Shown: one piece after another, positions 31,319 through 52,513 of the stretch
Layout of the letters: each line of letters starts with the position of its first letter
Position numbering within the stretch: the stretch's first letter is position 1
Assembly: GCA_963719515.1 (NCBI GenBank)
Contig: CAVRCJ010000010.1
Location: 128,001 to 192,000 of the forward strand
DNA: 64,000 nucleotides
Direction of reading: 5' to 3'
From: an uncultured cyanobacterium
Lineage (GTDB): Bacteria; Cyanobacteriota; Cyanobacteriia; CAKZMO01
Position numbers and translations under genes: made by a program
The notes under the pieces: model-generated
Database searches by the model: none
The model's input: the letters and a program-made list of their open reading frames with translations, nothing else
What the model was told of the DNA's origin: nothing

Positions 31319-31891
31319 CTACGGCTCTTTCGAATCTGCCGCCAATGAAACGTTGCGTCGTCGCTGCTGCCACGTGCCTGAGCTGCGAATCGCTAGCCAC
31401 AGCAAAAATAGCGCGATTAGGCCTCCTTGACGCGGCGCATCGAGGGCGAGAAACACGAGCACGACGCACAGCACATCCTGAGTCAGGATGAACCACAGCG
31501 GCAGCCCCCTAAGCCGGTAAAACCAACCGAGCTGTACGAGCCGTAGAACGAAGGCCAATGACGCGCTGACTGCCCCGATAATGCCGAAAATCAGAGCCGA
31601 ACTGCCGACGGTACTCACAACGGCAATGCCAGCGATCGCCCCTACCACCGGACTTAGAAATAGCTCCACCGTCTGTAGCGCTCTATGCCCCACGCGATCT
31701 TTGGAGATCACGAGCTCCAGGAGTGACCAGCTGACCAAGATCCCCAGCACGGTAGCGGGGCGAAGCATAGAGAGGAGCGGCACTTGGCTCCACAGGTCGT
31801 CACCGCTCAAAATGCCGAGAATCAGGAGCGGCAGCGCCAGTCTCAGGCCCGCTGCAGCTCCAATGGAAAGTGCAGCTAGGAGTTCAAACAT
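31319..31891 (-). CDS. DUF4126-type membrane protein
   Basis: LAALS..AAAGLRLALPLL N-terminus with multiple TM segments. Confidence 0.7.
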   Translation of the reverse strand: MFELLAALSIGAAAGLRLALPLLILGILSGDDLWSQVPLLSMLRPATVLGILVSWSLLELVISKDRVGHRALQTVELFLSPVVGAIAGIAVVSTVGSSALIFGIIGAVSASLAFVLRLVQLGWFYRLRGLPLWFILTQDVLCVVLVFLALDAPRQGGLIALFLLWLAIRSSGTWQQRRRNVSLAADSKEP

Positions 31892-31931: not shown

Positions 31932-32203
31932 TGGTTCACTAGCGAAAACACGTGACATCCTCCCGACGCTGACAGCAAGCTGTACAGCGCGGGCTTCCTC
32001 AGTGACTCCCAGCTATTGCCGAGACATATCCTGAGATAGGTTTATACTCCGCCTGATGCCCCACGGCAGAGTTTTGAATTTTCATCTCCGCGAGGGAGGA
32101 TACGCACTATGTGTCGCAGATACATTTGCAAACTGAGGAACGGGTGACTTGCAGCTTTCGCCTACGGGCCCGTCACACTCTTTGCGGGGTGTATCACCTT
32201 GCT
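31932..32203 (-). ncRNA. Putative stand-alone omegaRNA (scaffold plus ~20-nt flank-derived guide GUGUUUUCGCUAGUGAACCA)
   Basis: Extended -10 TGGTATGAT at 32218-32210. Stems GGUGAU/GUCACC, UUCCUCAGU/ACUGAGGAA and ACUCUGCC/GGCGGAGU. Internal GUGAC (32176-32172) is complementary to the terminal GUCAC. Boundaries are inferred. Confidence 0.55.
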
Positions 32204-32343
32204 ATCTCTATCATACCAACTGCTAGCCTCAGCGCTGAGCGCACTATCCGCTGTGCATCATTTTGCGGGCGCACTTCGGCTAGCGCGACTCTCATCCCGA
32301 CGCTCACCCTGACGGGTAGAGCGCGGGGCTTCCTGTCTAGTAG
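31952..32343 (-). mobile_element. Non-autonomous IS200/IS605-family mini-element (PATE-like, 392 bp, no protein)
   Basis: Two related subterminal hairpins (CCCGCGCT...AGCGTCGGG). The left guide AAGC is preceded by TTTAG; the right guide GAAG goes with the terminal GTCAC. Confidence 0.8.
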
Positions 32344-32541
32344 CTAAATCTAGTGTAGTCCTAGTTTCCTTTCAGTGCCGTCATGCCTCACGCCGCAGTG
32401 CCCAGTGCCGCCATACCCAATCTGTAGGTCTTTCGCGGCAATGACATCCTGCTCAAACCCCTAGGCTCGAAAGCCGCTGTAGCTGTCTACAAAATTGAGC
32501 TAAGCCTGGCACAATAGTGAACACCGGGCGCTTCCATTCGT

Positions 32542-36090: not shown

Positions 36091-36501
36091 TCAATCAGTC
36101 GGTGCATCTTGGCGGTGGATGTATTGTTTAAGCATTTCGATTGGGGCTCCGCCAGCGCTAGCGACATAGTAAGCGTTGGACCAAAACGCTTTATGTCCCC
36201 CGTAGTGTTCTTTGTACTGCTGGGGAAATTCTTTTTTCATGGTGCGGCTGGTTGCGGCTTTAAGGCTGCCAACGAGCGCAGAGATTGAGTTGCGTGGATG
36301 GAAGTCAACAAGTAGGTGGATGTGGTCCGCTTCCCCTGAGAACTCCAGCACCCTACACCCCATCTTCACGCAGACCTGAGAAATCATTTCCTCAATCCTA
36401 GTAAGCATTTCAGAGTCGATGGCTTTGCGCCTGTAGTGCGTTACGAATACTAGGTGCAGGTGCACACTAAAAACGCTGTGACTTCCTTTTCTTGTTGGCA
36501 T
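36091..36501 (-). CDS. tnpA: IS200/IS605 Y1 transposase TnpA
   Basis: HLVFVTHYRR, EADHIHLL (HUH), FWSNAYY, LKQYI (catalytic Tyr); ATG at 36501. Confidence 0.93.
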   Translation of the reverse strand: MPTRKGSHSVFSVHLHLVFVTHYRRKAIDSEMLTRIEEMISQVCVKMGCRVLEFSGEADHIHLLVDFHPRNSISALVGSLKAATSRTMKKEFPQQYKEHYGGHKAFWSNAYYVASAGGAPIEMLKQYIHRQDAPTD

Positions 36502-36530
36502 TTGAGCTAGGTGTAGGCTATTATGGGCAC

Positions 36531-37788
36531 ATGGTAACAACTCGCCGCGTCACTTTCAAGCTGTATCCGTCCGCCACTAAGGCGGCGAAGCTGCATGATG
36601 CGCGAAAGTTACACCAGTATCTGTACAATGCCGCACTAGCAGATCGCCGCGATATGTATAAGCGGTGGGGCGTCTCGGTGGACTACTTTGCTCAGCAAAA
36701 CTGTTTGCCAGCATTTAAGAGAGAGTGGCCTGAGTACAAAGGGCTAGCCAGTCACGCCTTGCAAGCGACTCTAAAGCGGGTTGACCTAGCATTTCAGGGC
36801 TTTTTCAATGGCCTGCGGGGTTACCCCAAATTCAAGGCATTCCGCTACTACAGAGGTTGGACATATCCTTGCAAGTCAGGATGGAAAGCCCATACCGATG
36901 GTACAAATGGCTACTTGGAGCTGAGAGATTTGGGGTTGCGCATTCAGATGCGCGCTCAGGCCAGAACTTGGGGAAAGCCAACCATCTGCACTATCGTCTA
37001 CAGCGCCGTTGAGGATTGCTGGTATACCAGCATCACGGTCAAATGCAGCCCGGTGCGGGAGACAGGGACAGGCGCTATCGGTGTGGACCTGGGCTGCAAA
37101 GATGCCATATCGTTCTCGGACCGCACCAAAGAGCGCAAGCCTCAATTTATCGCCGAGGGCGACCGGGCCGTTAAGCGACTGAGCAAGTCCCTGCAAAGGA
37201 AGCGCCGCCCTGACCGGCGTGGTGGGGTGCGTGGCTCTCGCAGATGGAAAGCAGCGCAACAAAAGATTTCTAGTCGCAAGCGAACAGTGAAGCGCCAGCG
37301 CGAGGATTGGCTTCACCAGGTAACCAGCAGCATAGTACGCGATAACAGCCTAGTTGCTGGCGAACAACTCAACGTCAAGGGCATGACTCGCAAGGCCCAG
37401 AAGGGTAAGCGGAAAAAGCAAAAGGCCGGTCTCAACCGCTCTATCTTGTCGGTAGGGTTTGCCGAGATTGGCAAGCTGCTATCCTACAAAGAGGCTGAGG
37501 CCGGTGGCTTCTATGTCGAGTCACCTACCCGGCAGCTTAAGCCTACTCAGCGGTGTGCTGTGTGCTGACAGACGACGCCCAAGACGATGGCTGAGCGCAC
37601 TCACGTATGCCAGCACTGCGGTCATGTTGAGGACCGCGATACCAATGCAGCCCAGGTCAACTCTGATCTGGGCCAAGGGGCACGAACTGTCCTTAAGCCG
37701 TCGATCCACTAGCTCCACTGATTGCCGAAGCATGAAGCGCCTAGCGGAAATGAAACGTGCGAAACGTCTAGCTCAGCCTTGCGGCTAG
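36531..37788 (+). pseudogene. tnpB: TnpB RNA-guided nuclease, disrupted
   Basis: GVDLG and AGEQLN are intact. TGA at 37566-37568 replaces the Trp (TGG) seen in the second copy and cuts off half the Zn finger and DRDTNAA. There is a further +1 at about 37662. Confidence 0.85.
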
Positions 37789-51147: not shown

Positions 51148-52513
51148 CAGAATCGCGGCAGTCCCTAATCTCAGCGAAGCGGATTAGGGAAGGATAGCGC
51201 GTGAGCGTAGCGAACATAGTACGATTGTCTCAGTGCATACATCGAGTTATGGCAACACGCCGTGTAACGTATAGGCTCTACCCGACGACCCAGCAAGGGG
51301 CGATGCTGTTCGAGTGGCGGCGTCTTCATGCCTACCTGTACAACGCCTGCATAGAGCACCGCCGCACCAGCTACAAACAGCACGGGCAGTCTGTGGGCTA
51401 CATCGACCAGCAAAACCTGCTACCTGCATTCAAGGAGTGCTGGCCAGAGTACAAAGCTTTGGGCAGTCATGCTTTGCAGGCTACGGTCAAGCGAGTAGAC
51501 TTTGCGTTTCAGCGGTTCTTCAAAGGGCTAGGGAAGTATCCCAATTTCAAGTCGATACGGCTGTTCTCTGGCTGGACCTATCCGTGCGGTTCTGGCTGGA
51601 AGGCGCTAAGCGATGGCATCAATGGTTGCCTGCAGCTATCAAACTTGGGCAAGATTCGGATGCGAGGACAAGCTCGTACCTGGGGGAGACCGACAACCTG
51701 CACGATTGTCTACCGGCCAAGTGAAGGGAAGTGGTACGCCTCCATCACCGTGGCGTGCAGCCCAGAGCGCCAAACCGCTGGCGGTGCTGTCGGGATAGAC
51801 TTAGGCTGCACTAATGCGGTGTCGTTCTCAGACGGCACCAAAGAGGAAAAGCCTGAGTTTATCAAAGCGGGCGATGTCGCGGTTAAGCAGGCCTGCAAGG
51901 TGCTGCGCCGCAAACGCAGGCCCAACCGCAAGCAGGGCGTCAAAGCCTCCAACCGCTGGCGCAAAGCCAGACGCAAAGTTTCCAAGATTCAACGCAAGGT
52001 AGCCAACCAGCGAGCGGATTGGTTGCACAAGCTCACCAGCAACATAGTTAGCCGTAATAGCCTAGTCGCCGGAGAGCAGCTTAACGTCAAGGGCATGACC
52101 CGCAAGGCCCGCAAAGGCAAGCGGAAACGTCAAAAGGCCGGTCTCAATCGCTCAATCCTGTCGGTGGGGTTTGCAAGGGTTAGACCGCTGCTGTCCTACA
52201 AGGAAGCTGAGGCGGGCGGATTCTATCTGGAGTCTCCTACCCGGCAGCTCAAGCCGTCCCAGCGCTGCGCTCAGTGCTGGGAGCTGACGCCCAAGACGTT
52301 GAGCGACCGTATCCACCGATGCCAACACTGCGGCCATACCGAAGACCGCGATACCAATGCTGCTCAGGTCAATCTGATCTGGGCACGGGGGCAGGAATCT
52401 TCCCTCGCAAGCGCTGAGCCGCCTAGCTCTACCAACTGCGGAAGCATGAGGCAACTAGGGGCAATGAAGCGCACGAAACACCTAGCTCAGCGTAGCGGTT
52501 AGGTGTAGTTCAT
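51148..52513 (+). mobile_element. IS1341-type (tnpB-only) element, same family as 36026-37799
   Basis: TTGAA directly precedes the element. Left-end hairpin CCCTAATC/GATTAGGG follows CAGT. Right-end hairpin CACCTAGC/GTTAGGTG follows GAAA and the element ends in TTCAT. Confidence 0.9.
51249..52502 (+). CDS. tnpB: TnpB RNA-guided endonuclease, apparently intact
   Basis: RuvC D (GIDLG), E (AGEQLN) and D (DRDTNAA); Zn finger CAQC...CQHC. Confidence 0.93.
   Translation: MATRRVTYRLYPTTQQGAMLFEWRRLHAYLYNACIEHRRTSYKQHGQSVGYIDQQNLLPAFKECWPEYKALGSHALQATVKRVDFAFQRFFKGLGKYPNFKSIRLFSGWTYPCGSGWKALSDGINGCLQLSNLGKIRMRGQARTWGRPTTCTIVYRPSEGKWYASITVACSPERQTAGGAVGIDLGCTNAVSFSDGTKEEKPEFIKAGDVAVKQACKVLRRKRRPNRKQGVKASNRWRKARRKVSKIQRKVANQRADWLHKLTSNIVSRNSLVAGEQLNVKGMTRKARKGKRKRQKAGLNRSILSVGFARVRPLLSYKEAEAGGFYLESPTRQLKPSQRCAQCWELTPKTLSDRIHRCQHCGHTEDRDTNAAQVNLIWARGQESSLASAEPPSSTNCGSMRQLGAMKRTKHLAQRSG

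Follow-up and report, generated by a model that had tools for sequence, protein, structure and literature searches.

The closest described counterparts of the element analysed here are the PATE-like elements of Geobacillus stearothermophilus, which are likewise ORF-less IS200/IS605 elements with cognate ends and omegaRNAs (Meers et al., bioRxiv 10.1101/2023.03.14.532601). The same preprint reports that PATEs often encode omegaRNAs requiring the TnpB of other elements in trans, and that guide-directed retention at the donor site was demonstrated for tnpB/iscB elements; its available part describes neither a dedicated promoter nor a conserved front domain in the Geobacillus PATEs, whose RNAs were not tested there. 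The cyanobacterial element, PATE-A, has candidates for both, and its body, unlike theirs, is not a deletion of a resident tnpB element. In-trans activity of an omegaRNA has been shown for CboTnpB (10.1101/2023.11.20.567912), and the stand-alone omegaRNAs of OMEGA systems, mobile and without effector or transposase, reportedly function in trans when the effector is a compatible one (PMC10691335, on Altae-Tran et al. 2021), an account that in its available part states no effector class or added 5' domain. PATE-A is of the TnpB type, with a predicted 3' guide. The stand-alone omegaRNAs tested by Altae-Tran and colleagues in 2021 were reportedly IscB-type, with a 5' guide.

The homogeneous PATEs of Haloquadratum walsbyi (PMC3119063) resemble PATE-A in having IS605-like near-terminal palindromes but no terminal inverted repeats, in producing no target duplication, in being too short to code and in reaching multiple copies of > 90% identity; unlike PATE-A, they were characterised as DNA elements at a time when omegaRNAs had yet to be discovered, and are often simple core deletions. 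The ISDra2 TnpB omegaRNA (PMC10097598) resembles that of PATE-A in scaffold size (about 116 nt in ISDra2), four stems, a flank-derived 3' guide and a stem-1 loop that forms a pseudoknot with the last bases of the element. It is derived from the tnpB mRNA and has a dispensable 5' region overlapping coding sequence, whereas PATE-A has at that place a non-coding, separately conserved domain behind its own predicted promoter. In IS608, guide tetranucleotides 5' of each hairpin select the cleavage sites (TTAC, TCAA and AAAG are given in PMC3201880). A 2026 review (PMC13565253) contains nothing on PATE domains in its available part, and the literature covered, main texts without supplements or extended figures and mostly from outside subscription journals, yielded no PATE with promoter plus front domain in cyanobacteria. 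PATE-borne omegaRNAs that need TnpB in trans are therefore already in print, and the addition made here is a front domain of about 130 nt: PATE-A is an omegaRNA-bearing PATE variant in which a conserved predicted promoter is combined with an apparently portable RNA domain of no catalogued family.

Ends, copies and partner elements of PATE-A

The window, the whole stretch of 64,000 nucleotides that was analysed, comes from the genome of an uncultured cyanobacterium (G000). PATE-A occupies 392 bp of it (31952..32343, minus strand, as are all features given below by window coordinates unless noted) between a DUF4126 membrane-protein gene and a divergent AI-2E gene. The host genome holds 53 full-length copies of 96–100% identity (33 haplotypes, with few changes), sharp-ended and in unrelated flanks. 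All 53 have TTAG at the left and GTCAC at the right, and the sequence outside both ends is random; the fifth base of the left motif is T in 47 copies, G in three and C in three. This (T)TTAG (32344..32348) is host DNA outside the element, is also found at the cognate tnpB elements and is the predicted left cleavage site of TnpA as well as the predicted TAM for TnpB. The orthologous site in the congener G002 is empty, and the intergenic region of G003 is shorter and also without the element. Inside G000 no empty site was found, the five junction-spanning matches being the copies' own loci. PATE-A is present at other sites in G002 (93% identity) and G004 (86% over the part present). An earlier, sequence-only reading of the locus had proposed an ORF-less mobile IS200/IS605 element, to be sought as copies with different flanks and as empty sites; both were found, and its placing of the ends, the hairpins, the box TGGTATGAT and the distance to the DUF4126 gene agrees with the sequence.

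The layout of the ends is like that of IS608. At the left, the tetranucleotide AAGC (32331-32328) precedes an imperfect hairpin (32327-32296); at the right, GAAG (31997-31994) precedes a second hairpin (31993-31962), followed by the cleavage site TCAC (31955-31952), the element terminating in GTCAC. The guide tetranucleotides of IS608 pair with their sites position by position, a rule that gives AAGC -> TTAG and GAAG -> TCAC, and the ends of PATE-A fit it. The element thus has subterminal imperfect palindromes without terminal inverted repeats, inserts on the 3' side of a constant tetra/pentanucleotide with no duplication of the target, and contains no transposase or nuclease ORF. A single chance frame of 78 aa lies on the plus strand, and the only coding trace in six-frame translation is a relic of the TnpB C-terminal tail within the omegaRNA part, so the view that no credible ORF is present holds. 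We found no conserved small peptide, the 28-codon relic frame being absent from the related loci L183 and L143. Between the left end and the promoter lies a spacer hairpin (32231..32275), completely paired in G002 and partly disrupted in most G000 copies; related hairpins occur in other PATE families, a similar motif being present in PATE-B/D/E, and in some relatives the hairpin is missing or replaced. A 279-nt stretch of PATE-A folds modestly better than shuffles (z -2.18, 4/200).

Two other families in G000, a tnpB-only family of 1488 bp and a tnpA+tnpB family of 1.8 kb, have left end, right end and target motif in common with PATE-A. In alignment the first 64 nt of PATE-A are identical to the left end of the 1488-bp element; three 1.8-kb elements, with a Y1 tnpA without stops, are 89–92% identical to PATE-A at the left end and 87% identical over the last 85 nt. 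At the sequence level PATE-A therefore shares its ends with a TnpA-encoding element, whose action in trans is putative. The cognate family comprises 22 blast pieces, and in 17 of them the tnpB frame is complete, has no stop and carries all three RuvC motifs that were looked for. One cognate TnpB is encoded at C6:122121-123317 of G000. It had been supposed that a tnpB family with the ends and target of PATE-A would exist elsewhere in the genome, since the ends of the two tnpB elements in the window differ from those of PATE-A; both statements proved right. One of these two elements (36091-37568) is an IS605 element with tnpA and tnpB, in which a TnpB zinc-finger match just past the ORF contains one stop; the other lies at about 52170-52367. 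In a 1488-bp cognate element a 59-aa ORF replaces tnpA (L046:112-288, minus strand) and gives weak ribbon-helix-helix matches (RHH_1, E 0.021; DUF6290, E 0.0035), both below the cut-off.

PATE-A as a simple internal deletion of the resident tnpB element was considered and rejected: only its positions of about 1-65 and 278-397 align, and positions of about 65-277 are not derived from that element. The omegaRNA of PATE-A is nearer to a tnpB element of another genome (G483) than to the resident one.

The omegaRNA scaffold and its predicted promoter

The last 120 nt of PATE-A (31952..32071) are, by homology to the 3' ends of tnpB elements and by covariation, a TnpB omegaRNA scaffold with predicted TnpB binding and cleavage. 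They are 80% identical to the 3' end of the co-resident tnpB family, from which a 6-nt insertion distinguishes them, and 85% identical to that of the G483 element. The scaffold ends exactly at the right end of the element and contains stem 1 (32071-32047), stems 2/3 (32036-31997), the right-end hairpin (31993-31962) and a pseudoknot between GGCAU in the stem-1 loop (32060-32056) and AUGUC (31958-31954), stems and pseudoknot being conserved. Stem 1 is mostly rewritten between PATE-A and the cognate element with its pairing preserved. On 18 rows (15 tnpB-linked and three PATE), the four-stem structure with pseudoknot has 91.5% of its cells paired, and 15/33 pairs show double changes. A second alignment, of 30 gene-less rows, was fitted to the stems but not to the pseudoknot, and 28 of its rows had played no part in training the model; here 94% of cells are paired (slid controls, 33–51%) and 19/27 pairs show double changes. 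The five pseudoknot pairs are kept in 30, 24, 29, 28 and 26 of these rows, one of them alternating between A-U (15 rows) and G-C (10 rows). Covariation of the right-end hairpin says nothing about RNA use, because this hairpin is also the TnpA site. The covariance model of the omegaRNA (R1) has matches in 56/150 genomes of the class; among the matches listed, many of the loci inspected have, in place of a tnpB within 800 nt, a left end together with a -10 box and a spacer.

The sequence-only reading had taken the whole predicted transcript for a guide-RNA gene, had placed a 9-bp helix (UUCCUCAGU/ACUGAGGAA) in it and had paired an internal GUGAC with the terminal GUCAC. The guide-RNA assignment survives for the last 120 nt, the first ~130 nt of the predicted transcript being a separate domain. 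Its covariance-model check came out in favour, omegaRNA stems and pseudoknot covarying among gene-less relatives, and by position a flank-derived guide is predicted at the right end of the scaffold, as had been suggested. The two pairings were not upheld: the complementary strings of the 9-bp helix exist, but their mean pair probability is 0.002, and that of GUGAC with the terminal GUCAC is 0.000, covariation placing the pseudoknot at GGCAU/AUGUC.

An extended -10 box, TGGTATGAT (32210..32218), predicts a transcript start near 32203. The box reads TGGTATGAT in G000, TGCTATACT in G002 and TGGTATAAT in G004, its distance being fixed within each lineage. A TA...T hexamer with at least 4/6 consensus matches is found in the 55-nt window of 19/20 relatives, a proportion that overstates the case as the 20 elements are kin; the corresponding figures are 17% for random windows and 34% for shuffled ones. 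The proposed box thus persists while its sequence changes. A strict -35/-10 scan of the PATE-A transcript strand gave no pair.

The DUF4126 gene (31319..31891; Pfam PF13548, E 1.1e-28) starts 60 nt beyond the right end of PATE-A. Just upstream of PATE-A is a possible native -10 box of this gene (TACACT, 32352..32357), a putative promoter hexamer that occupies the same place in the empty G002 allele, and the predicted promoter of PATE-A may replace that of the gene. The suggestion that PATE-A aims a promoter at DUF4126 accordingly stands at this locus and does not extend to the copies at large. Intergenic copies number 46/53 against 38% of background sites, and 30/46 of them point toward sense neighbours against about 58% of background TTTAG sites (crude ORF calls in both cases); promoter exaptation across the copies was rejected as these crude calls give no clear orientation bias.

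The front RNA domain and its distribution

The front domain (32072..32203, ~130 nt) is defined by covariation and has no Rfam match. It forms a long rod (32195-32119), the internal loops of which are near-invariant in the core (32180-32135); a small hairpin (32100-32085) follows. Across 19 rows, which amount to about three lineages, 91% of cells are paired; 27 cells show double changes (0/500 shuffles), and the number of pairs with double changes, 7/20, is not above the shuffle control (141/500). Between G000 and G002 there is a compensating substitution in the outer helix and a compensating insertion pair in the next one, and in the full transcript the pair probability of both helices exceeds 0.95. 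For the inner GUGAC/GUCAC helix it is 0.003 in the G000 variant, and folding energy is not unusual relative to shuffles (z -0.05 to -1.25). The invariant letters are located in loops. At 32162-32171 (minus strand), three G000 substitutions relative to G002 and G004 create a perfect 10-bp palindrome in the core, a pattern as from template switching that permits alternative pairing of the domain.

Rfam 15 returned nothing for the domain at the gathering score, and nothing relevant at E up to 10 for PATE-A in the window and for L143, or at E up to 1 for 13 loci. Likened to twister, twister-sister and HDV-like ribozymes, SRP and group II domain V, it presumably fits none of them. Base pairing of the domain with the cognate tnpB mRNA is no better than that of eight shuffles.

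A motif taken from the transcribed part of the element was detected in 17 stretches of the genome collection, 16 of them upstream of an omegaRNA scaffold and the seventeenth a chance match. The 16 loci lie in 11 cyanobacterial records (Baaleninema, Prochlorothrix, Nodosilinea, Aphanocapsa, Elainellaceae/Elainellales, Leptolyngbyaceae and further cyanobacteria), mostly 206–234 nt from the right end, one having an insertion and one being truncated where its contig stops; 11/16 show a left-end hairpin within the 260 nt displayed. Baaleninema simplex PCC 7105 is a cultured strain with this front domain. In Baaleninema simplex, one copy (L172) has an insertion of ~130 bp inside the stem-1 region of the omegaRNA. 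With a looser pattern applied to metagenomes, 8/23 matches were such loci and the other 15 look like coding DNA. In G000 the front-domain covariance model (R2) picks out the 53 copies and nothing else, and it is matched in 9/150 genomes of the class, G000 included; one weak R2 match among 150 phylum-wide genomes (L286) resembles coding DNA and was judged a chance match. Against six tnpB-element loci and the other PATE types R2 gave no significant match (best E 0.3), so likenesses to other PATE front domains seen by eye are unproven. The pattern had no match in viral contigs, and in plasmid records no match to PATE-A was found, the left part of L143 having a single partial one. A DNA search of 401 genomes of the phylum with the middle part of PATE-A gave strong matches only in G000 and six weak ones, one of which (L022) overlaps the omegaRNA part. 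Metagenomic locus L202 and loci L186/L216 combine front domain and omegaRNA with a predicted promoter but lack a left-end hairpin in the upstream DNA shown, and are possibly immobilised stand-alone guide genes. A PF07282 search found no TnpB in two of five front-domain genomes (G050, 99% complete; G499, 85%), repeats often being missing from assemblies.

Front domain and omegaRNA differ in their relationships. Conservation across genera is higher in the core than in the omegaRNA: loci L183, L187 and L200 are 90–92% like L143 in the core, and their omegaRNA is 60–61% like that of L143 and 87% like that of PATE-A. In a tree of 16 front-domain PATE omegaRNAs and 21 tnpB-linked ones (119 alignment columns, including the right-end hairpin, which may recombine), the PATE rows separate into two clades, each joined by different tnpB relatives, and a single clade for the 16 is rejected (p-AU 0.012). 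Contig-cut, inserted, decayed-end and near-duplicate rows (L003, L172, L181, L184, L137, L204 and others) were left out of this tree. The simplest reading of the two-clade pattern is a swapping of 3' ends, which the tree suggests; deep co-divergence under strong constraint is a possible alternative.

At least four further gene-less IS200/IS605 families are present in G000, with 18, six, one and one copies: the L048 family (454 bp, C3:734706-735160, 18 copies), a 427-bp family (C10:332119-332545, six copies) and those at C4:101934-102377 and C1:7104-7551. Each has a left end, a -10 box, a leader and a different omegaRNA type, and some have the PATE-A spacer hairpin. Other cyanobacterial PATE lineages (L049, L112, L114 and L115; L145, L152 and L159; L110 and L007; L120-L125) each have a conserved front domain of their own, of differing length. 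The L145/L159-type domain is one that we take to resemble a cyanobacterial CRISPR leader sequence.

Mechanism, alternatives and significance

The explanation that we regard as best, and as reasonably probable, is that PATE-A is a gene-free PATE, moved by TnpA, whose RNA of ~250 nt loads a borrowed TnpB for restorative homing, the front domain having a protective or loading role. TnpA from co-resident IS605 elements would excise and insert PATE-A in trans. Its promoter would give a single RNA of ~250 nt that runs through the right end into the flank, and the borrowed TnpB would load the back-half scaffold and cut TTTAG plus flank, a sequence present only after excision; repair from the sister chromosome would then restore PATE-A at the emptied site, by the mechanism of Meers et al. 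Transcription, read-through, TnpB loading and restorative homing are steps that we infer. The weakest step is the role of the front domain, which may protect the RNA and help its loading in trans, a suggestion that we make tentatively. Protection is proposed because a tnpB element frees its omegaRNA from its own mRNA, whereas the RNA of a PATE must survive and fold alone.

The guide itself is predicted, by analogy with TnpB omegaRNAs, in the flanking host DNA at 31932..31951. The sequence-only reading had proposed a trans-acting guide, and the genome search that it called for spoke against a special trans guide: none of the 53 guides has a TTAG+16-nt target (up to two mismatches) elsewhere in G000, three have one at 10 nt exact, and the guide at 31932..31951 matches only its own copy's empty site. 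Each guide would hence act on its own emptied site, and probably serves re-insertion there. Elements of 93 bp, derivatives without stem 1, pseudoknot loop, promoter or front domain, occupy six separate TTTAG sites in G050 and G022, from which it follows that the PATE RNA is unnecessary for spread. These elements (L261, L262, L266, L267, L270 and L274) begin exactly at the internal omegaRNA TCAC and have no normal left hairpin; internal AAGC and stem 2 may act as their cryptic left end. Similar short right-end-only inserts after TTTAA were seen in G008 (L158, L161 and L162).

Several other explanations bear on whether the RNA, or its front domain, does what is proposed. The front domain might itself be active, as a self-cleaving ribozyme that frees the 5' end of the omegaRNA or as a protein or RNA polymerase site that secures read-through into the guide. 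Its invariant letters lie outside the stems, in internal loops, a pattern known from catalytic and protein-binding RNAs, its core is conserved above the omegaRNA across genera, and independent changes yield G-U pairs on the transcript strand; but no Rfam ribozyme or other family appears at E up to 1 or 10, other PATE lineages have different front domains or almost none, and 5'-end processing of TnpB omegaRNAs is reported to proceed in the absence of a domain of this kind (PMC10097598), which leaves this explanation unlikely. We think it distinctly unlikely that PATE-A is a TnpA-only parasite whose omegaRNA-like end and middle are inherited baggage, in an RNA unused by TnpB. The spread of 93-bp derivatives without a complete omegaRNA would suit such a relic, and the G000 copies, with 33 haplotypes and few changes, are too young to reveal selection. 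On the other side, stem 1, stem 2 and the pseudoknot covary in gene-less elements, where coding constraint is absent, the -10 box survives though the length of the preceding spacer varies widely, and the middle did not arise from the cognate tnpB by deletion.

Alternatively the RNA could be made and bind TnpB as a decoy, titrating the TnpB of about 20 cognate elements without productive cutting. The copy ratio of 53 to about 20 and a scaffold 20% diverged from the resident family would fit this, as would an own promoter as against the small RHH-like ORF (a weak Pfam match) of the tnpB-only family, ORFs of this kind being reported as IS605 promoter repressors (10.64898/2026.09.24.754181). A decoy brings the element no clear gain, though, and pseudoknot and right-end/guide junction are intact, so that we hold it to be very improbable. 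Still less probable is a role of the conserved core as single-stranded DNA in peel-and-paste transposition, as an extra TnpA-binding or folding element: the core is on the transposed top strand, and base pairing cannot separate DNA from RNA, but its place is invariably downstream of the -10 box, the distance being fixed within each lineage, and cognate tnpB elements and 93-bp derivatives are mobile without it. Domestication by the host, in which selection would favour PATE-A as a trans guide or a mobile promoter for the control of genes nearby or far away, is scarcely credible. The position of PATE-A just after a possible native -10 box and aimed at DUF4126, and the 46/53 intergenic copies, could be read in that way; against it, 0/53 guides have a distant target, orientation shows no clear bias, the G002 site is empty, and purifying selection alone predicts an intergenic excess.

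A bolder reading, rather unlikely in our judgement, is that of a long-lived, RNA-only lineage in which a left end, a promoter and a conserved, active RNA domain form a chassis that captures whichever omegaRNA fits the local TnpB. If it were true, the domain would be either a loading enhancer that outcompetes cis-made omegaRNAs or a new self-cleaving ribozyme, and PATE-A-type elements would be dedicated parasites of the TnpB homing pathway. The front domain could also be a new class of structured RNA.

If the preferred explanation, that of a promoter-borne RNA loading a borrowed TnpB for homing, is right, the published suggestion of PATE omegaRNAs could be tested directly within a single genome, which offers 53 natural guides and a partner family already identified, and the front domain would be a natural answer to a problem of genome editing, the expression of TnpB guides apart from the mRNA. 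Elements of the PATE-A type also bring predicted outward-reading promoters into the intergenic DNA of cyanobacterial genomes. Gene-less IS605 elements would then be more than debris, keeping a promoter and a guide RNA under selection in order to borrow TnpA and TnpB.
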